Below are positions 3,146 to 59,656 of a stretch of DNA of 64,000 bases, piece after piece. Every line of letters starts with the position of its first letter. Positions within the stretch are counted from its first letter, which is position 1. This stretch comes from Escherichia virus TH41. The position numbers and the translations under genes are program-made. The notes below the pieces were generated by a model. The model was not told the DNA's origin, searched no databases, and saw nothing but the letters and a program-made list of their open reading frames with translations. The stretch lies in sequence record MT446412.1; one strand, given 5' to 3'.

Positions 3146-3424
3146 ATGAAAACTTATCAAGAATTTATTAACGAATCAATTAGTCACCCGGATATGCTGG
3201 AAGACCTGAAAGGACATCTGATGGTTAAGGCCAAACCGGTTGATGGTGGCGCATTTGAGTTGTTTCTTGTTAAAGGCGAAAACGGTCCTGATAACAAGAA
3301 AGTTTCAGCAATGATGTTGACTAAAGGTTACAAAGTCAGTTCTTCCTGGAATGCTCCATTCACTTACGCGGTAAGCCCTCGTGAACTGAAAAAAGTTAAA
3401 GCTGGACAATATACAAAAATTTAG
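3146..3424 (+). CDS. capsid-targeted internal protein
   Basis: N-terminus MKTYQEFINE; preceded by promoter/stem-loop cassette and GGAG RBS. Confidence 0.65.
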   Translation: MKTYQEFINESISHPDMLEDLKGHLMVKAKPVDGGAFELFLVKGENGPDNKKVSAMMLTKGYKVSSSWNAPFTYAVSPRELKKVKAGQYTKI

Positions 3425-5236: not shown

Positions 5237-5312
5237 GGCCCTGTAGCTCAATTGGTTAGAGCATCCGGCTCATAACTGGCAGGTTTCCGGTTCAAGTCCG
5301 GATGGGGCCACC
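5237..5312 (+). tRNA. tRNA with CAU anticodon (Met or lysidine-modified Ile)
   Basis: Cloverleaf by hand: acceptor GGCCCTG/TGGGGCC, D-arm GCTC..GAGC, anticodon loop CTCATAA, T-arm TCCGG-TTCAAGT-CCGGA; one mismatch in anticodon stem. Confidence 0.7.
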
Positions 5313-5389
5313 CGGGGTGTAGCTCAATTGTATAGAGCAACGGTCTTCTAAACCGTAGGTTGTGGGTTAGAATCCCACCACCCCGACCA
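5313..5389 (+). tRNA. tRNA-Arg (anticodon UCU)
   Basis: Acceptor CGGGGTG/CACCCCG, anticodon stem ACGGT/ACCGT, loop CTTCTAA, T-arm GTGGG-TTAGAAT-CCCAC, encoded CCA. Confidence 0.8.
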
Positions 5390-9983: not shown

Positions 9984-10323
9984 TCTTGCATCACATGTTT
10001 ATCAATTGGCTGAATATGATATTGGTGCCAATTTATTATTAGGGATTGTCACCGCCATGCTTGGTGGTTTGGTTGGTCTGGTAATGACCACGGTTATGGC
10101 TGCAATCGAGGGAGTCATGCCCATTGAGATGGGTTTCTTTATGATAATCGCTCCGGCTGTTGTGTCTTATTTTATCCCTGTTGTGTATGATATCTGTCAC
10201 ACAAATGCAGTGAATGCTCCTAGTCGGAAGAGATATGGTTCAGCAATGGCTGAGTATAATAAGTTCCTGAACAAAACAAAACGTAATGAACTTGAAACCT
10301 TTATTAAGGAATGTAAATCATGA
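9970..10323 (+). CDS. small two-TM membrane protein (FIKEC tail family)
   Basis: Two TM helices, C-terminus ...LETFIKECKS. Confidence 0.5.
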   Translation: MERPSLASHVYQLAEYDIGANLLLGIVTAMLGGLVGLVMTTVMAAIEGVMPIEMGFFMIIAPAVVSYFIPVVYDICHTNAVNAPSRKRYGSAMAEYNKFLNKTKRNELETFIKECKS

Positions 10324-10610
10324 ATAAAATTGAAATTGCTATCCCCAAGTATTATGATGAGAAATCTGCAGAAAAAGCTATCTATTCTCTTCTAAATAAG
10401 ACCTCTGAAATTGAAAAACACTGTGAAGAAATCGCAGATGAATATGGTATCGAATTCAGCACTGGTGATTACGGCACCGGCCGTACATATCACCCAGTCG
10501 GTTATGAATGTTCCGAATGGTTCGCTCACCATATTGAAAACAACGGCGGACAAGTTGAAAACGGCATTGTTACTGTTGGTGCCTGGGTTTCCTCTTCTGA
10601 GGTGTGCTAA
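10320..10610 (+). CDS. small protein, member 1 of C-terminal W-x-S-S-x-x-C tandem family
   Basis: Ends ...GAWVSSSEVC; ATGA overlap with upstream gene. Confidence 0.55.
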   Translation: MNKIEIAIPKYYDEKSAEKAIYSLLNKTSEIEKHCEEIADEYGIEFSTGDYGTGRTYHPVGYECSEWFAHHIENNGGQVENGIVTVGAWVSSSEVC

Positions 10611-10611
10611 T

Positions 10612-10893
10612 ATGATGAATGATTACCGTAAAAATAAAGAACTGGCTAACGCAGTAAATGACATCCATAAAGCTATTCGTCGTGCTGAGGAAATTGCAAA
10701 CAAATATGAGACTCATTTTAATATATACCCTGCTCGCGGTATGGGCGGTGACTATTATTCTCCTGGCGCCCTGAAAGCTGACCTTGCTCATTGGGAAGAA
10801 CATGGTCATCCTGAATGGGCTATTGTTAATACTCATGACTATACAACTGACCTGGAAAAAGGCGGTTGGGTGTCCTCCTCTTCTGAATGTTAA
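10612..10893 (+). CDS. small protein, member 2 of W-x-S-S-x-x-C tandem family
   Basis: Ends ...GGWVSSSSEC; ATG 1 nt after previous stop. Confidence 0.55.
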   Translation: MMNDYRKNKELANAVNDIHKAIRRAEEIANKYETHFNIYPARGMGGDYYSPGALKADLAHWEEHGHPEWAIVNTHDYTTDLEKGGWVSSSSEC

Positions 10894-10902
10894 GGAACTA
10901 TT

Positions 10903-11100
10903 ATGTCTCGTGAACTAGATTGTGCAATCCGTACTGCCGCGGCAGCTATTGAAAACGTTATCCAGATTTGTAAAGAAGAGCGTGAAGAAGCTGATATCTA
11001 TATCGATGGTGTTCGTGACCTAGAACGACATATCACGCTTTATAATGGTTGTATTACTATTAGTGGTACCTCTTGGGTGTCCTCCTCTTACGAATGCTAA
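10903..11100 (+). CDS. small protein, member 3 of W-x-S-S-x-x-C tandem family
   Basis: Ends ...TSWVSSSYEC; RBS TAAGGAA formed by previous stop. Confidence 0.55.
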   Translation: MSRELDCAIRTAAAAIENVIQICKEEREEADIYIDGVRDLERHITLYNGCITISGTSWVSSSYEC

Positions 11101-11109
11101 GGAAATAAA

Positions 11110-11328
11110 ATGACTGCTAAAACTGTTAAAGAAATTGAAGACCAAATCCGTGCACTAATCTGTGAAGGTGAACAACTGGCCGATAAAACCGGCGAACACT
11201 TCCGTAGCGGTGGCGAAGAATATATTCCAGCTTCTAGTCCGGAATATAACGATTATGAATGGGTTCGTGACGAATATTGTATTCCAGAAGGTGAAGGTTT
11301 CTGGTTTAACTCCTCTATGTCTTGCTAA
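11110..11328 (+). CDS. small protein, member 4 of W-x-S-S-x-x-C tandem family
   Basis: Ends ...GFWFNSSMSC; RBS TAAGGAA. Confidence 0.55.
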   Translation: MTAKTVKEIEDQIRALICEGEQLADKTGEHFRSGGEEYIPASSPEYNDYEWVRDEYCIPEGEGFWFNSSMSC

Positions 11329-11337
11329 GGTGATAAA

Positions 11338-11571
11338 ATGACTACTGCTGTTGAACATGCTGAATTAGAAAAAGCTGCCCTTGAACTGGCTGCACTGTAT
11401 AAGAAAGTAAAAGATATGGCTTTTGCTCAAGATTTCGGTGTTGAGCTTGATGATTATGACGGCGAAGTCCGTCTTGAAGACTGGTTGAACAGTTCTTGTT
11501 ATGGTGAAGAAGCTGGTCGTACCTTCGTTGCTCGTGCCGATGGTAAAATCTGGTACCCAAGTTCATGTTAA
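11338..11571 (+). CDS. small protein, member 5 of W-x-S-S-x-x-C tandem family
   Basis: Contains DWLNSSC and ends ...KIWYPSSC. Confidence 0.55.
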   Translation: MTTAVEHAELEKAALELAALYKKVKDMAFAQDFGVELDDYDGEVRLEDWLNSSCYGEEAGRTFVARADGKIWYPSSC

Positions 11572-38730: not shown

Positions 38731-39057
38731 ATGACTGCATCTATCACTAACACCATCGCTAATTTCGCATTTGCTAAAGTTAACACTCTGATGAAATCTG
38801 GTTTCGTTACCCCTGAGATTCTGGACCAGTGGGAAGGCGATGTACAGAAGCTGATTATTGCAGAAGGTCAGACAATGGGTAAAGCGCGTATTCGTGAAAG
38901 CCTTGTTCAGTATATCCTGAATGAATTTGATGTAGTAGCGTTTGGTCTGCCGCTTCCACGCGAAAACAAAGAAGTTTCTGACAAAGCCATCAAGCGCATG
39001 AACTCCCAACGTAAGAAAGGTTTTGTTGACCTGAAAATTATTAAGGGTGCGAAATGA
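38731..39057 (+). CDS. hypothetical protein
   Basis: 108 aa. Confidence 0.5.
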   Translation: MTASITNTIANFAFAKVNTLMKSGFVTPEILDQWEGDVQKLIIAEGQTMGKARIRESLVQYILNEFDVVAFGLPLPRENKEVSDKAIKRMNSQRKKGFVDLKIIKGAK

Positions 39058-39317
39058 TGTGTCCTGCTATTGAATTACCTGAAGGTGTTGCGGTAATAGT
39101 ATCATACAAACATACGTATGCTAATGGAATTCGCCGAGCTCATAAAATTAGTCAAGGTTACTATTTACAAAGGACTTTAAATTATTTCATTTCAATGGGA
39201 TATGAATTCAGAATCTATCCTATGTGTACTAAAACCAAGTACACTAAAATCGATGCTTGGGAAGCTTGGGCGGAAGGCATGACATTAGACGAATTCCTGG
39301 ACTACTTAAATGATTAA
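39054..39317 (+). CDS. hypothetical protein
   Basis: 87 aa. Confidence 0.45.
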   Translation: MMCPAIELPEGVAVIVSYKHTYANGIRRAHKISQGYYLQRTLNYFISMGYEFRIYPMCTKTKYTKIDAWEAWAEGMTLDEFLDYLND

Positions 39318-53456: not shown

Positions 53457-53790
53457 TATCGATTTATCTGATTTAGATAATTTCGAGAAAGATGCGGAGG
53501 GAGCTAAGGCTCCTTCTGTACCTTACTACGAAAAAAGTTTGGAGATTATCCGGCAATCCATGGGAACCGTACGACAGGAAATTCTGTTATCACTCCCTGA
53601 TGGGTCCAGTCACATTGTGTACGTAACCGGAATTAAAATTGAACCATCTGGAAAAGTTTCAGTTGATTTCGGCACCCCTTCTGAAGACCGCAAAGCGGAG
53701 CTTGCAGTGCATGTAGAAAAGTGTGTTACAATGCAAATACAAGATGAAATTGATAAGATTAAAATGAAAAAGAGGTGGTGGAAGTGGTAG
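53446..53790 (+). CDS. hypothetical protein (gene 40 position)
   Basis: 114 aa between uvsX and 41, same length as T4 gp40; identity not verified. Confidence 0.45.
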   Translation: MMNDIDLSDLDNFEKDAEGAKAPSVPYYEKSLEIIRQSMGTVRQEILLSLPDGSSHIVYVTGIKIEPSGKVSVDFGTPSEDRKAELAVHVEKCVTMQIQDEIDKIKMKKRWWKW

Positions 53791-55214
53791 AAACTATTTT
53801 ATCCCAGCTACTCTTTAACAAGGAATATTTTGTTAAAGTCTGGCCATATCTGAATAACACATATTTTGAAAAGGGTCCAGCAAAGACCCTTTTTAATACG
53901 ATTAACGAACACGTAAAAGAATATCAAGCGGTACCAACTAAGACTGCACTTGATATCGCGCTCGACAGTTCTGACCTTTCTGAAGTCGAATATGAAGGCA
54001 CAAAGAAACTCTTAGGAGTCCTGGCCGATACTCCAGAAGACCAGGAATGGTTGGTTAAAGAAACCGAGAAGTATGTACAGAAGTCTGCGATGTTCAATGC
54101 CACATCCAGGATTATCGAAATCCAGAGCAATGCCGAACTTCCGAAAGATAAACGTGATAAACGAATCCCGGATATTGGTGCTATCCCTGACATCATGCGC
54201 GATGCATTGTCTATCTGTTTTGACTCTGCTCTGGGCCATGACTGGTTAAACGATTACGAAGCTCGATTCCAGACTTATCTGAACAAATCGAAGAAGGTTC
54301 CGTTCCGTATTAACATCCTGAATAAAATCACGAAGGGCGGGGTTGAGTACGGTACAGAGAACGTTTTACTGGCCGGGACGAACGTCGGCAAATCCCTTGG
54401 ACTTTGTTCGCTGGCGGCTGACTATCTTCAGACTGGTCATAATGTGCTTTATATAAGCATGGAAATGGCTGAAGAAGTATGTGCCAAACGTATTGATGCC
54501 AACTTGCTGGATGTGTCTCTGGATGATATTGATGAAGGTCATGTGTCATGGGCGGAATACAAAAGTAAGATGGAAAAATGGCGTGCAGCCGGGACCCTTG
54601 GGACTCTGAAGATAAAACAATATCCAACTGGCGGTGCTCATGCGGATACCTTCCGTGCATTGCTGAATGAATACAAACTGAAGCAAGGGTTTGTGCCGGA
54701 TGTGATTATTGTTGACTACCTGGCAATCTGTGCAAGCTCAAGACTGAAAACGTTTACCGAAAACAGTTACGGCCTGATTAAGATGGTTGCAGAAGAACTT
54801 CGTGGTCTGGCGGTCGAGAAAAATGTGGTCCTGTGGACTGCAGCGCAGACAACCAGGGGTGCGAACGTTGCAGCTGAGATTGATATGGCTGACATCGCTG
54901 AATCTTTTGGTATTGCTCACACGGCCGACTTTATGTTGGGTGTTGTTGAGACCGAAGAATTCGCTCAAATGGGACTACAGTTAATCAAACAGCTTAAGTC
55001 TCGTTACGGCGATAAGAACTACTATAATAAATTCAAGATGGGTGTTAAGAAAGGTAATCAGCGCTGGTACGAGGTTGATGATGATTCAGCTCCTAAACAA
55101 GGCCCTACGGTTAAAGAAGCCACTGGTGAGATGAATCGCCAGGCTGAAATGAATAGACAAACCAGGGTCAACAGGAGCGACCTGGACGACCTTGCTGCTC
55201 AAATGAAATTCTAA
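53775..55214 (+). CDS. 41: replicative DNA helicase gp41 (DnaB-like)
   Basis: 479 aa; VWPY...YFE.GPAK and Walker A GTNVGKSLGLCSLAADYLQ.GHNVLYISMEMAEEV match T4 gp41. Confidence 0.95.
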   Translation: MVEVVETILSQLLFNKEYFVKVWPYLNNTYFEKGPAKTLFNTINEHVKEYQAVPTKTALDIALDSSDLSEVEYEGTKKLLGVLADTPEDQEWLVKETEKYVQKSAMFNATSRIIEIQSNAELPKDKRDKRIPDIGAIPDIMRDALSICFDSALGHDWLNDYEARFQTYLNKSKKVPFRINILNKITKGGVEYGTENVLLAGTNVGKSLGLCSLAADYLQTGHNVLYISMEMAEEVCAKRIDANLLDVSLDDIDEGHVSWAEYKSKMEKWRAAGTLGTLKIKQYPTGGAHADTFRALLNEYKLKQGFVPDVIIVDYLAICASSRLKTFTENSYGLIKMVAEELRGLAVEKNVVLWTAAQTTRGANVAAEIDMADIAESFGIAHTADFMLGVVETEEFAQMGLQLIKQLKSRYGDKNYYNKFKMGVKKGNQRWYEVDDDSAPKQGPTVKEATGEMNRQAEMNRQTRVNRSDLDDLAAQMKF

Positions 55215-55233
55215 AGACCTTCGGGTCTTTTTC
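55214..55233 (+). terminator. Rho-independent terminator
   Basis: AAGACC-TTCG-GGTCTT then TTTTT. Confidence 0.7.
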
Positions 55234-55241
55234 ATTTAGAG

Positions 55242-55271
55242 GTTTACAACACCATAAAAAGGGTGTACTAT
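55242..55271 (+). promoter_or_regulatory. early promoter
   Basis: GTTTAC-18 nt-TACTAT; near-identical copy of the cassette at 23678. Confidence 0.5.
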
Positions 55272-55302
55272 TATCCCATCAACTACTGATGAGGATAATA
55301 AA

Positions 55303-55551
55303 ATGTTATTAGTTAATGTGCAGTACCAGTTCAAATCTGAAGAAGCTCTCCAAAAGTATGCTGATATTTGTGAGCATAATAAAAGAACAGCTGCCATTGT
55401 TGGTCTGAAGCCTTTTAAAATTTTGGATTGCTCCTTGAACAGAGCAAGACGCTGGTGTAGTGTTGCCTGTCATGCTTCAGTTGAAGGGAATGATTATTTT
55501 TTCATTACTTTCAATGCACAAGATTTTCATTTAATTAATGAATTAAAATAG
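55303..55551 (+). CDS. hypothetical protein
   Basis: 82 aa. Confidence 0.45.
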   Translation: MLLVNVQYQFKSEEALQKYADICEHNKRTAAIVGLKPFKILDCSLNRARRWCSVACHASVEGNDYFFITFNAQDFHLINELK

Positions 55552-55629
55552 TGTACAAGCCCCTTGTCTTAGGACATAATGATTCCATACTGAGTTACAC
55601 AATAAACCAACTGTTAAAAGGAAAACCAT

Positions 55630-55938: not shown

Positions 55939-55962
55939 AAAGGGGCTTACAGCCCCTTTTTC
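55939..55962 (+). terminator. Rho-independent terminator
   Basis: AAAGGGGC-TTACA-GCCCCTTT then TTC. Confidence 0.65.
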
Positions 55963-56000
55963 TTATGTTATAATGACTCTATCAACTACTGGAGAATAAA

Positions 56001-56318
56001 ATGAAAACCATTGATTGCAAGGCAGAATACAAAGTTTATTATCATGGGTCAAGTTCTAATGCTGGAATCCAAAATATGCTTTGTCCTCCTGATGCAACTG
56101 GTGTTCTGTCAGAAGTTGGGCGTAAGAAAAATTTAGGGCGTGTGTTTTTTACTGAAGATATTGGTTTGGCGCGTATCTATGCAGGAAGAGCAGCTCGCTC
56201 ATATGGAGGAGAACCCCGTCTTTATCGTGTGATTGCACCTGTTGACGTGGTTTGTTTAAATGATACTAAAGGCGCAACAGTTTATCACGCTGACTGGGCC
56301 TTCTGTGAGGAAATCTAA
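56001..56318 (+). CDS. hypothetical protein
   Basis: 105 aa; C-terminus ...AFCEEI shares junction with dmd-like gene. Confidence 0.45.
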   Translation: MKTIDCKAEYKVYYHGSSSNAGIQNMLCPPDATGVLSEVGRKKNLGRVFFTEDIGLARIYAGRAARSYGGEPRLYRVIAPVDVVCLNDTKGATVYHADWAFCEEI

Positions 56319-56522
56319 ATGTATAAATTAGAGAACGTAGTATTTATTGGTTGGTTTGAAAATGGTAATATGTTTACCAAAGAAACCGCGCTGGATGTCA
56401 GTGACAAAAATATGATTGAATGGGTTACAGTGCAGTATGCGGAAGTGAATAATGCGCTGGTTAAAGCCTTTGTTAATGACAATAAAGTTTTTGAATATGA
56501 TGCCCGCATTGAGGAAATCTAA
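56319..56522 (+). CDS. dmd: Dmd-like antitoxin (inhibitor of RnlA/LsoA-type RNases)
   Basis: VVF.GWF.N..MFTKE......D....W.T.QYAEVN.ALVKAF..D.KV resembles T4 Dmd as recalled; located between 41 and 61 as in T4. Confidence 0.6.
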   Translation: MYKLENVVFIGWFENGNMFTKETALDVSDKNMIEWVTVQYAEVNNALVKAFVNDNKVFEYDARIEEI

Positions 56523-56864
56523 ATGACTTTTAATCCAGAAGACCGCGTAAAAGTAACAATCAAAGTGAGTGCCGTTGGCGTTCCATCTTTTGAGCGCTCA
56601 AGTATGTTCCATCCCGCAGGTATTCACTGGTATGTTCAGAAGACTGCTGATAACTATAATGCGCTTGTTGAAGCTTTTGTTGATGGCGAGCTAATCCATA
56701 AAGTAGACATGCGTAAGGGCACTGCATTGCGTAATCTTATCTTGACCGTTGAAGCTCAACTGGTAAATGAAGAAATCTGCCTTACTGATATTGAAGCAGC
56801 TCTTCATATTGCACGTGCTGAATATTACAAATTGACTGGTTTTTCAGTTGAAGGTGAAAAATAA
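56523..56864 (+). CDS. Dmd paralog with N-terminal extension
   Basis: HWYVQKTADNYNALVEAFVDGELIHKVDMRKG parallels the Dmd core; tandem to dmd-like gene. Confidence 0.45.
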   Translation: MTFNPEDRVKVTIKVSAVGVPSFERSSMFHPAGIHWYVQKTADNYNALVEAFVDGELIHKVDMRKGTALRNLILTVEAQLVNEEICLTDIEAALHIARAEYYKLTGFSVEGEK

Positions 56865-56894
56865 GTGTACATCAAAGGGGTAATGCAGTATATT
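56865..56894 (+). promoter_or_regulatory. early promoter
   Basis: GTGTAC-18 nt-TATATT followed by CCCTATCAACTACTGAGGAG cassette. Confidence 0.45.
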
Positions 56895-56922
56895 ATCCCT
56901 ATCAACTACTGAGGAGATTGAA

Positions 56923-57216
56923 ATGAAAAAGTTATTAATCGCAGCAATTCTTACCGTAGCATCATGTGGTACAGCCCCAGTTACTGCTGGGCTTGATAAA
57001 GACCTTTGTGAGTGGTCCATGACTGCGGACCAGACTGATGTTGAACACCAGATTTATGCTGACATCATGAACATTACTAAACGTGACCACCCAGATATGG
57101 TTAAAGAAGTATCTGACCAACTGGCTTCTGGTGACGTTATGCAGTATAACTATGTTCTGTATTGCGATGCTTCATTTGACAACAGCAAGATTGTTCAATG
57201 GGTTACAGGTGAATAA
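56923..57216 (+). CDS. sp: Spackle (periplasmic lysozyme inhibitor / superinfection exclusion)
   Basis: 97 aa, signal peptide, DKDLCEWSMTADQT.VE.QI.ADIMNI.KRD.P.M...V...L.SG.VMQYNYVLYCD matches T4 Sp. Confidence 0.75.
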   Translation: MKKLLIAAILTVASCGTAPVTAGLDKDLCEWSMTADQTDVEHQIYADIMNITKRDHPDMVKEVSDQLASGDVMQYNYVLYCDASFDNSKIVQWVTGE

Positions 57217-57217
57217 A

Positions 57218-57658
57218 ATGATTAACAGAAATTTAGTTATCAAAAAACTTCGTTGTAAAAATCAAAATGCACAAGCATACAGGATGTTTTGGAGCGACGA
57301 ACCCATTCAATACCTGGGTTATTTTCTTGTTGATAGTGATAATAGAATTACGTTTGCTCATAAACTTCTTAACAAAGAATTAAACCATTGGCAAGAACTT
57401 ATTGCGGTCAAGTCTAAATTATTTTCGCGCAATACAATGCACCAATTGGTTTATTTTTTCGCTGACGGTATTCCTGACAAGGTTGAGTTTGATGGGTTTG
57501 AATTTAAAGACATCACCCCTGATAATGAATTGAATGACAGTATTGTTAATATGGGTATCCCGGGTAAGTACATCAAAAACAGTCTTTTGAAACTTCTGGA
57601 AACCCCTGTATATTCAGTTGACGACCAGATTTTTAATGCCTTCATGAAGCGAGATTAG
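57218..57658 (+). CDS. hypothetical protein (DDQIFNAFMKR tail)
   Basis: 146 aa; C-terminal 11 residues identical to next gene. Confidence 0.45.
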   Translation: MINRNLVIKKLRCKNQNAQAYRMFWSDEPIQYLGYFLVDSDNRITFAHKLLNKELNHWQELIAVKSKLFSRNTMHQLVYFFADGIPDKVEFDGFEFKDITPDNELNDSIVNMGIPGKYIKNSLLKLLETPVYSVDDQIFNAFMKRD

Positions 57659-57659
57659 T

Positions 57660-58019
57660 ATGAGTTATTATAATTTTCTGAATTTTGAACTGGCGAGCAA
57701 TAATGATGGTAATGCTCATTATGAATTTCGTGAGCCACGGTTTAATCAAGCGATTGGTTATATTATCGTCAAAGATGATGTTATCATAAAGGCTCGCTCA
57801 TTTATGGTAATGAATGGACCTTATGAAGATACTCGCGGCTATCCATTTGATAAAAAGAATGTGCGCGATTGTGCAGCATGGATAACCGGAAACCCCGAAA
57901 TTGGGGTCATGATATCTACTGAAGCGAATGACATTCTGGAAGGGGTTTGGGCCAAAGCTCAAGAATCGTCTATTGCTATTGACGACCAGATTTTTAATGC
58001 CTTCATGAAACGAGGTTAA
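57660..58019 (+). CDS. hypothetical protein (DDQIFNAFMKR tail)
   Basis: 119 aa; same C-terminal tail. Confidence 0.45.
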   Translation: MSYYNFLNFELASNNDGNAHYEFREPRFNQAIGYIIVKDDVIIKARSFMVMNGPYEDTRGYPFDKKNVRDCAAWITGNPEIGVMISTEANDILEGVWAKAQESSIAIDDQIFNAFMKRG

Positions 58020-58020
58020 T

Positions 58021-58242
58021 ATGTTTGTTTTAACTCAATTTTCTAAAGCAACATATAGCTACTCTTGTCAATGGGAAGTCTTCATTGATACACCGTCTCC
58101 CAAGTATGGAGTTTTCGGACGAGTAACTACACAAGCTTATGTTGCGCGACCAACCAAACGTCAGATTCGTAAGCTTAAAAAGGCGCATCGCCAACTGATT
58201 AAAAGAAGGGAACAATATGAGTGCAATGTGTACGGGCTCTAA
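58021..58242 (+). CDS. small basic hypothetical protein
   Basis: 73 aa. Confidence 0.4.
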   Translation: MFVLTQFSKATYSYSCQWEVFIDTPSPKYGVFGRVTTQAYVARPTKRQIRKLKKAHRQLIKRREQYECNVYGL

Positions 58243-58627: not shown

Positions 58628-59656
58628 ATGTCATATATTGATAAAGAATTTGCGGTTAGAGCTTTATCGTATCAACCACGTTATAGAGAAGTCACCGGGA
58701 GCACATTTAAAGCAAACTGTCGTTGCAAGGTTTGTGGGGACTCCCAGAAAGATTCACACAAGGCTCGATTCTGGGCGTATACTAATCCGGCTGATGGCGC
58801 GGTTTACGTGAAATGTTTTAACTGTGACTACTCCACGCATATAAGCAAATACATAAAAGAGTTTGAGCCGGATTTACACTGGGAATATATGGTTGAGAAG
58901 TATAAGGAGAATGCCTTTGGCAGACAACGTAATGAAGTTGCCGAAACTCCGAAAGAACCAGAAAAAACTCCGGTTATCGAAGAGCTTGCTTTTTGTGAAA
59001 GACTCGATACTTTACCAGAAGCGCATCCTATAATTAAGTATGTAAAAAGTCGGTGTATTCCTAGCAATGTTTGGAACCGGTTATGGTTTACAAACAAATG
59101 GCCTGCATTAGTTAACTCCGTTAATCCTGGGACGTATAAGAATGAAACGAATGAACCACGCTTGGTTATTCCTATCTTCAACGGCAAAAAAGAAATCGAA
59201 TCTTTCCAAGGACGAGCTCTTCGCAAAGATGCACCACAAAAATATATCACAATCAAAGCTCACCCAGAAGCTTCCAAAGTCTATGGTGTAGACAAGATTG
59301 ATGAGCGCAAGCGCGTGTGGGTAATGGAAGGTCCGATTGATAGTTTGTTTATCCCTAACAGCATTGCGATAACTGGTGGAACATTGTCATTGGAAGCCGT
59401 TCCTTATCCAGAAACCAGAGTATGGGTAATGGACAACGAACCAAGACATCCGGATACGATTAAACGTATGAAGAAGCTCGTTGAAGCTGGCGAAGCTGTT
59501 ATGTTCTGGGACAATGCACCATGGCATACGAAAGACATAAATGAGATGGTTAAATCAGAAGGAGCAACCCCTGAACAAATCGAATCATATATGGCTGATA
59601 ACGTTGCCCAAGGATTGATGGCGAGAATGCGACTTTCGAAGTACGCAAAAGTTTAG
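58628..59656 (+). CDS. 61: DNA primase gp61
   Basis: Zinc ribbon C.C.VCGDS..D..KAR.W.Y and C-terminal GPIDSLFI.N.IAITGG...VW..DNEPRHPDTIKRM.KLV.AGE.VMFWD match T4 gp61. Confidence 0.95.
   Translation: MSYIDKEFAVRALSYQPRYREVTGSTFKANCRCKVCGDSQKDSHKARFWAYTNPADGAVYVKCFNCDYSTHISKYIKEFEPDLHWEYMVEKYKENAFGRQRNEVAETPKEPEKTPVIEELAFCERLDTLPEAHPIIKYVKSRCIPSNVWNRLWFTNKWPALVNSVNPGTYKNETNEPRLVIPIFNGKKEIESFQGRALRKDAPQKYITIKAHPEASKVYGVDKIDERKRVWVMEGPIDSLFIPNSIAITGGTLSLEAVPYPETRVWVMDNEPRHPDTIKRMKKLVEAGEAVMFWDNAPWHTKDINEMVKSEGATPEQIESYMADNVAQGLMARMRLSKYAKV

Follow-up and report, generated by a model that had tools for sequence, protein, structure and literature searches.

The analysed window is a 64,000-nt stretch of the Escherichia virus TH41 genome (MT446412.1). 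Its segment 55950–58450 shares 98.4% identity with Escherichia phage UPEC01 and ~96% with vB_EcoM_VR20 (Tevenvirinae, Gaprivervirus), and on this sequence identity the window is assigned to a Gaprivervirus-like T-even phage. The order of genes on the + strand is 41, two small ORFs, dmd, a 113-aa ORF, sp, P6, P7, a tifA-like gene, a 63-aa ORF, 61.1 and 61. Helicase gp41 is encoded at 53775–55214 and primase gp61 at 58628–59656, both on the + strand. The interval between them (55.6–58.6 kb), containing dmd, tifA-like and adfA-like genes, is identified by its gene content as an anti-TA island. The genes of anti-TA islands are small and block host toxin-antitoxin defences. The name was given to the equivalent interval of T4, which carries dmd (anti-RnlA), tifA (61.4, anti-ToxN) and adfA (61.2, anti-DarT) (PMC9391042).

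All genes of the island described here are located on the + strand. Gene dmd (56319–56522; Pfam PF17587, E = 1.1e-20) encodes the anti-RnlA antitoxin. The variable slot after dmd is occupied by the 113-aa gene (56523–56864), whose product is a remote Dmd paralog (matched to Dmd by BLASTP at E = 2e-5 and to the Dmd family of PHROG at E = 3.3e-4). The next gene, sp (spackle, 56923–57216; PF25676, E = 2.5e-43), is the left neighbour of AdfA-family cassettes in all loci examined. Directly downstream of spackle lies P6 (57218–57658; 146 aa; phrog_8539, E = 3.5e-91), ending in ...SVDDQIFNAFMKRD, the orthologue of which is annotated as a CDS in VR20. It is followed by P7 (57660–58019; 119 aa; phrog_4122, E = 4.5e-53), ending in ...AIDDQIFNAFMKRG, and by the tifA-like gene (58021–58242; T4 61.4-like, DUF7279; PF23945, E = 2.7e-20, and VR20 annotation).

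The 3' ends of P6 and P7 form a direct repeat (57618–57662 and 57979–58023), identical at 42 of 45 positions, with a perfect run of 31 nt. The first copy of this block encodes V-D-D-Q-I-F-N-A-F-M (57617–57646, + strand), followed by K-R-D, TAG, one base and the ATG of P7 (57647–57662). The second copy encodes I-D-D-Q-I-F-N-A-F-M (57978–58007, + strand), followed by K-R-G, TAA, one base and the ATG of the tifA-like gene (58008–58023). Both copies continue into the next start codon, as ...GAGATTAGTATG and ...GAGGTTAATATG, respectively.

To place this repeat among the other gene ends of the window, 144 ORF ends (from crude ORF calls) were compared all-against-all, anchored at the stop codon, each as a 63-nt segment made up of 45 nt of coding end, the stop codon and the 15 nt after it. 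The P6/P7 pair scored 48/63, followed by genes of the W-S-S-C family with 40 and 38, while random in-frame internal segments of the same genes reached a maximum of 33/63. The ending DDQIFNAFMKR, which the initial annotation had reported as common to ORFs 57218 and 57660, is thus a genuine shared tail. The window has ~55 tight junctions, and DNA is shared beyond chance only in the P6/P7 and W-S-S-C families. Since these two families exceed the controls and the other ends do not, shared junction DNA is real but not genome-wide.

The adjacency of the two genes and the direct orientation of the repeat would also be expected of a recent, still undiverged tandem duplication. However, outside the block P6 and P7 are unalignable as DNA, BLASTP of P6 against P7 covers the 13 tail residues only, and the tail recurs in several genera, attached to no fewer than four types of body. 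A chance likeness of AT-rich gene ends would have to account for a score of 48/63 against controls not exceeding 33/63. Either origin is barely credible, and both were rejected on the BLASTP result, the stop-anchored controls and the spread of the tail over body types.

Comparative analysis indicates that P6 and P7 are tandem, highly diverged single-domain relatives of AdfA, the anti-DarT factor A, which is gp61.2 of T4 (LeRoux et al., 2022, as cited in PMC11257639 and PMC9391042). Their common 11-residue ending is best explained by the membership of both in the AdfA family, whose C-terminal peptide is strongly conserved. The three readings offered earlier for such tails recognized the sharing and passed over the tandem paralogy of the genes. 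The AdfA profile of Pfam (PF23813) aligns residues 101–119 of P7 with profile positions 193–211 of 211, at 23 bits, under the gathering cut-off of 27, and P6 has no match in Pfam. According to precomputed tables, the 118-aa P7 homologues of Tequatrovirus carry PF23813. The 48-nt block also ends T4 gene 61.2 (adfA), with 87.5% identity, and turns up in 556 phage records, in many of which it is duplicated.

Relatedness of the protein bodies is suggested at several levels. P7 of the Tequatrovirus Pinarejo is 36% identical over 89 aa (E = 3e-9) to the C-terminal half of the AdfA of the same phage. A nine-sequence alignment is colinear across the domain, with invariant G33, V37, I42, E88 and nine tail residues, and the bodies of AdfA and P6/P7 have the motifs Y..F and G..V.D..I in common. 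Comparison by hhalign of tail-stripped profiles, deepened with database matches, linked P7 to the C-half of AdfA (E = 4e-5, probability 70%) and to its N-half (E = 6e-4). In the same comparison a fourth body type (type 4) was linked to P6 (E = 1e-18) and to AdfA (E = 2e-4), and P6 to P7 (E = 4e-3). The direct match of P6 to AdfA was weak and not significant (E = 0.07–0.17), so the body homology of these two proteins rests on the chain via type 4 and P7.

Structural models are consistent with this assignment. In AF2 predictions (mean pLDDT 84.7 for P7 and 70.2 for P6) the two proteins share a core of the order strand-strand-strand-strand-helix-strand. P6 is modelled as a beta-rich domain (residues 1–100), followed by a stretch with pLDDT <50 that ends in a short tail helix (134–143), and in the P7 model the tail lies at the end of helix 87–116, with pLDDT ~62. 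Foldseek searches of BFVD matched the P7 model to a 212-aa protein and to the P6 homologue of VR25, and both the P6 and P7 models to one 157-aa protein of Yersinia phage fPS-65; the cross-matches among the family had E = 7e-4 to 3e-3. Among PDB entries, phmmer of T4 gp61.2 against the sequences found no solved relatives, and Foldseek of the P7 model returned nothing at E ≤ 0.001.

A protein search with P7 only retrieved eight close relatives, and a profile built from a mixed alignment was used for the wider search. Among 5.8 billion proteins it found 71 clusters of 64–216 aa, and those of the 71 that are named or could be placed on contigs belong to T-even-type phages of enterobacteria. Family members comprise the AdfA type (208–216 aa), the P7 type (116–125 aa), the P6 type (144–148 aa), the fourth type (143–144 aa) and a divergent form of 120 aa. 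The tail is present in all 19 clusters whose complete sequence was inspected, and none of them has more than one substitution in it. In every readable locus the family gene immediately follows spackle; since a pattern scan of viral contigs gave 14 loci of uneven length, the census was drawn from GenBank phages and contig look-ups. Binding and neutralisation of DarT1 are known for AdfA(R164H) of RB69 only, from a bacterial two-hybrid assay (PMC11257639), and an anti-DarT activity of P6 and P7 would be an extrapolation only.

The tail peptide [I/V]DDQIFNAFM is nearly invariant across the family. P6, P7, T4 gp61.2 and Pinarejo AdfA were identical in an ending of the form IDDQIFNAFM(N/K)(R/K)(G/D), and substitutions among the 19 clusters were rare. 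Variation among 27 distinct block sequences affects 7 of 9 third positions of the DDQIFNAFM codons and 0 of 18 first and second positions (Fisher p = 4e-5), a count that omits one frameshifted copy with an M-to-L change. Between the window and T4 the block is identical at 42 of 48 nt, as against 62–69% DNA identity for flanking orthologues, so that it is better conserved than its neighbours, the opposite of the outcome that the initial annotation named as refuting its idea. This surplus identity is due entirely to the invariance of the amino acids: the same codon is used at 4 of 8 degenerate residues of the block, and the background in flanking genes is 0.42. More distant loci use the codons ATC, AAC and GCA and keep the peptide. 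Variation confined to third positions, together with synonymous divergence at the background level, means that the excess conservation reflects selection on the peptide and not on DNA or RNA. The codon pattern thereby establishes that purifying selection acts on the protein to keep the tail peptide.

The same data bear on a purely recombinational origin, under which the tail would be a functionless scar, namely the conserved right homology arm of the slot, passively inherited by incoming genes. Such an origin would account for all cassette types ending in the tail, for their location in the slot after sp, and for breakpoints falling inside the block. A constraint acting on DNA only would not, however, limit change to third positions (7/9 versus 0/18), and between genera the synonymous sites have diverged as far as the background with the peptide unchanged, including at the loci with ATC, AAC and GCA. 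A tail without function is therefore improbable.

Of the earlier suggestion that the shared endings are functional C-terminal tags, selection on the peptide is thus borne out by the same contrast of codon positions and by its retention despite diverged third positions. The linker before the tail is variable in length and sequence and often contains proline. The pLDDT of linker and tail is ~62 in P7 and <50 in P6, compared with 80–95 in the body. With such a variable linker and low pLDDT, the tail looks in the models like an appended short helix. It is probably a constant module, a helix through which the proteins would dock to, or assemble with, a conserved partner.

Downstream of the tail the constraint changes in kind. 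In the codons after the tail Met (K/N, R/K, G/D), the stop and the spacer, the protein varies and a purine-rich GAGG, GAGA or AAGG is kept. Judged by this pattern, the ribosome-binding stretch of whichever gene comes next is made up of the final three codons, the stop and the single base after it. At the junctions, a GAGG or GAGA Shine-Dalgarno sequence lies 5–6 nt before the ATG and inside the upstream ORF, and a single nucleotide separates stop and start. A Shine-Dalgarno sequence within the upstream ORF and a stop and start a few nucleotides apart are the sequence features of a translational coupling junction.

This arrangement is what would favour regarding the whole ~45-nt block as a translational control element, acting by coupling or RNA structure on the downstream gene. 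Against it, RNA folding revealed no stable structure in the block copies (z = 0.01 and -0.49) or in the -EEI junctions around dmd (+1.55 and +1.06), and no Rfam family matched the block at E ≤ 1. The downstream genes also differ (P7, tifA-like, 61.1 and others), and the 30 peptide-coding nt are free at synonymous sites, with the purine motif located in the last 12–15 nt only. A control function of the entire block is accordingly very unlikely. The coupling element suggested in the initial annotation is preserved in reduced form: the last 12–15 nt, and these only, appear to serve downstream translation, and the 30 peptide-coding nt, with their free synonymous change and lack of RNA structure, are excluded from it.

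The -EEI junctions are an example of ribosome-binding DNA read as protein. The 15-mer GAGGAAATCTAAATG occurs in the window exactly twice, flanking dmd on the + strand, at 56307–56321 (GAGGAAATCTAA plus ATG), between the phrog_2110 gene and dmd, and at 56511–56525, between dmd and the next gene. The repeat pair earlier placed at 56300–56322 and 56508–56525 is therefore exact over 15 nt. The 15-mer consists of a Shine-Dalgarno sequence, spacer, stop and start. The residues -EEI of Dmd are read from the junction block and extend beyond the end of T4 Dmd (...VDCRG), and the -EEI tail is simply what results when a shared sequence of Shine-Dalgarno, spacer and stop is translated in frame.

Of the two further families named in the initial annotation, W-S-S-C proved to be larger than claimed. 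It forms a tandem array of five W-x-x-S-S-(x-x)-C genes on the + strand (10320–10610, 10612–10893, 10903–11100, 11110–11328 and 11338–11571; whole array 10320–11571), in which the junction blocks 10866–10908 and 11073–11115 are 84% identical and the stop-anchored scores are 40/63 and 38/63. For FIKEC, the tails of the genes ending at 10323 and 14904 are weakly alike as peptides (8 of 14 residues; BLASTP E = 0.001 for this single pair), and the claim is confirmed only in part, the DNA identity of 31/63 being within the control range and at chance level. The K/E-E residues of these tails are forced by an in-frame AAGGAA or GAGGAA Shine-Dalgarno sequence.

Related phages differ in whole cassettes at these junctions. 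After spackle, T4 carries adfA alone, Pinarejo, ESh36, JY01 and wV7 carry adfA and P7, and slur07 and L033 carry only P7. In RB5 no cassette is present and TTAGAGGCTAATATG alone is kept before 61.1. The window, VR20, VR7, P479 and MN01 carry P6 and P7, and E33 has only P6, its single block being fused to the tifA-like start. A megablast search with the T4 interval gave 630 records, among which length classes matching these arrangements are seen. MN01 lacks the tifA-like gene after P7, with breakpoints at 58023/58214 and AATATG microhomology, and has a tifA-like gene after dmd instead. P479 lacks the 113-aa gene after dmd, and MN01 has another gene in its place. Three different genes come after the dmd-side 15-mer in relatives, which have it unaltered or, in one case, with a single C-to-T change.

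The same is seen in the W-S-S-C array. Gene 3 is missing from phage 212, where the two matching window segments share one chimeric block (...GGWVSSS|YEC) as their overlap. In phage RZ it is gene 4 that is missing, and the breakpoints are located in repeated TAAGGnnATAAAATGACT start regions. Overall, the breakpoints of whole-cassette differences fall inside the block or in 6–15-nt repeats of the start region, which contain the ribosome-binding sequence. In E33, 212, RZ, MN01 and the set RB5/slur07/ESh36, the repeats flank the segment that is extra in one phage, and one copy, chimeric, remains in the other. T4 amplifies and deletes DNA at the dmd-tifA locus via 6–10 bp microhomology (Srikant et al., 2022, eLife, PMC9391042), which makes repeats of 15–45 nt plausible substrates at this locus. 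The literature on join-copy or short-homology transfer yielded nothing usable.

Repeats at gene boundaries of T4-type phages are also known as PeSLs, intergenic elements with an early promoter and a stem-loop that were proposed as sites where homologous recombination inserts or excises ORFs (Arbiol et al., 2010, PMC2839356; Comeau et al., 2014, PMC4122927). The window has many PeSL-like repeats (D1–D11, including 55226–55305, 55939–56008 and 56855–56925), and the right-hand limit of the slot after dmd is formed by one of these (breakpoints 56856–56858), so the block might be thought part of a PeSL-type mobile regulatory cassette. However, whereas a PeSL is intergenic and combines an early sigma-70 promoter with a stem-loop, the block is coding and has no hairpin, and no promoter-like site is common to its two copies, the one at 57587–57614 preceding copy 1 only. 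Membership of the block in such a cassette is highly improbable.

The peptide-coding DNA is the sole long stretch of identity between neighbouring cassettes, and the copies within one genome are unusually alike. Those of the window agree in codon at every one of the eight degenerate residues, and minor codons account for five of these (GAC, GAC, CAG, GCC and TTC); the chance of such a match, estimated from codon usage in the window, is ~0.003. The P7 block of Gaprivervirus shows no differences from that of its P6 neighbour and four from that of Tequatrovirus P7, although the P7 bodies of the two genera are orthologous (45% identity) and the neighbouring genes are not. In Tequatrovirus, the block copies of P7 and AdfA are identical, and in P479 both copies have a derived GAT at the first Asp codon. 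The mean number of block differences is 1.45 within a genome versus 2.76 between genomes (permutation P = 0.002, 11 two-copy configurations, an optimistic value since the two-copy genomes are phylogenetically related).

In these comparisons the states of the block track the genome rather than the gene family. Such likeness is suggestive of gene conversion within the block, or of repeated exchange there. Homogenisation is not universal, since in the divergent phage L022, where P7 is frameshifted, the copies differ at 6 of 30 positions. The proposal that the blocks act as sites of modular gene shuffling is thus supported by breakpoints at three loci and by within-genome homogenisation, and these natural variants would reflect recombination at the block.

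Considered as a whole, the observations are best explained by AdfA-family cassettes that combine a selected tail, gain and loss of cassettes mediated by the block, and the ribosome-binding stretch of the next gene; we regard this combined explanation as likely. In each protein of the family the body is beta-rich and evolves fast, the linker varies, and the C-terminal peptide hardly changes. The T4 recombination machinery could act at the repeats by unequal crossing-over and gene conversion, and such exchange would add, remove or swap cassettes in frame. The body may decide which toxin is recognised, with the tail remaining constant. The W-S-S-C array and the -EEI junctions around dmd fit the same scheme. 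On the other hand, ordinary crossovers in conserved flanks, with selection for products broken at gene boundaries, could give the same cassette differences.

A more far-reaching version, which we put forward tentatively and consider rather unlikely, is that the tail is a docking motif tying a fast-diversifying anti-toxin family to one conserved partner, with its DNA being an attC-like crossover site and the slot after spackle working, in a lytic phage, as an array of anti-defence cassettes that needs no integrase. Candidate docking partners could be the sliding clamp of the replisome or a host factor present at the fork, where DarT acts on single-stranded DNA.

To our knowledge, AdfA is among the few phage inhibitors of DarT described so far. 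It belongs to a wider family with at least four body types, always encoded next to spackle and having hypervariable bodies and one invariant C-terminal peptide. The invariant tail, together with P6 and P7, provides a handle for experiments on the action of the family, and the three loci may serve as natural examples of in-frame reshuffling of small anti-defence genes in T-even phages. Reshuffling via motif-coding DNA and ribosome-binding stretches would complement the laboratory evidence on microhomology and the PeSL model.

AdfA-family members and shuffling by short homology or PeSLs are already known, and the case described here is a variant of these. P6 and P7 resemble AdfA in the slot after sp, the C-terminal IDDQIFNAFM, the body motifs, and profile and fold similarity; the AdfA primer sequence of RB69, too, ends in ...IFNAFMNRG (PMC11257639). 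They differ in having one domain (146 and 119 aa), while AdfA has ~210 aa and apparently two domains. A folded body, a divergent variable linker and a short conserved hydrophobic/acidic C-terminal epitope are also features of gp43, gp55 and gp33, proteins not related in other respects, whose C-termini bind the T4 sliding clamp gp45 (T4 motif SLDFL[FY]; PMC2988020). Gp43 of the window ends in ATLFDMFDF, and QIFNAFM of the tail has the same [LI]-F-[DN]-x-F spacing, although the match is loose only. Unlike the clamp motifs, which differ between T4-type and RB69-type phages, the AdfA tail is identical in both, and three further residues follow it. The promoterless array of cassettes in one slot, each with a recombination-prone 3' repeat, may be likened, as an analogy only, to integron gene cassettes (attC); here there is neither an integrase nor an imperfect-palindrome attC, and recombination would be driven by homology.

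PeSLs share with the block a length of ~40–60 nt and a position at gene boundaries in hyperplastic regions of T4-type phages. A PeSL, however, is intergenic and lies on the 5' side of a cassette, whereas the block comprises a coding 3' end and the next ribosome-binding stretch, with no promoter or hairpin. The microhomology events at T4 dmd-tifA (PMC9391042) concern the same region, and there too entire genes are gained or lost between short repeats in direct orientation, of which one copy stays behind. There the repeats are fortuitous 6–10 bp matches that came to light in laboratory evolution, while here they are 15–45 nt long, conserved across genera and partly coding, and are deduced from natural variants.

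The junction block, a repeat of about 45 nt coding for the [I/V]DDQIFNAFM tail and the next start codon, is adjoined on the upstream side of its first copy (57617-57662) by a sigma-70-like site at 57587-57614 (TTGAAA and TATATT separated by 16 nt, 10/12 matches); the region upstream of the second copy (57978-58023) lacks this site. In the divergent relative L022 (3937-4294), a frameshift divides the gene for P7, the second of the tandem AdfA-superfamily genes, into two ORFs, and the tail is altered by an M to L replacement and an extra Glu. Such drift fits the expectation that inactivation of the gene would release the constraint on the peptide.

A weak third copy of the block, coding for VEHQIYADIMNITKRD, lies inside the spackle gene sp at 57041-57085 (62% over 45 nt). 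Spackle adjoins the AdfA-family genes, and the VEHQIYADIMNITKRD region is kept at the protein level in the distant spackle gene of L022. The resemblance of this segment to the block is probably due to chance.

The 5' counterpart to the shared C-terminal tails is the common N-terminus MKTYQEFI(T/N)E, found in small genes at 3146, 3479, 16624, 16952, 17481, and 58428 that are near-identical there at the DNA level. The 61.1 homologue, with the N-terminus MKTFKDFINE, belongs to this family. Its length is about 54 aa in the window and in T4, and in two divergent relatives (L022, 4509-4976; L027, 4113-4577) it forms the C-terminal portion of a 154-155-aa protein.

The variable slot after dmd is occupied by a 113-aa gene (56523-56864) that encodes a remote paralog of Dmd, extended at its C-terminus (E=2e-5 against Dmd in BLASTP; E=3.3e-4 against the Dmd family of PHROG). 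In relatives the slot contains a tifA-like gene or a small Cys-rich ORF (MEEVECVVCG...), or is empty. Its right edge is one of the PeSL-like repeats, which comprise GTGTACA..., a stem-loop, a TATAAT-like box, and CCCATCAACTACTGAGGAG, followed by ATG, and are located upstream of early genes at 55226-55305, 55535-55624, 55939-56008, 56855-56925, and about 20 other sites.

Elsewhere in the window, one pair of tRNA-like direct repeats (TGTAGCTCAATTGG...) at 5242-5375 presumably represents the phage tRNA cluster. An 87-aa ORF (39054-39317) ends in ...TLDEFLDYLND, similar to the sliding-clamp-binding end of T4 gp55, SLDFLYEAND.
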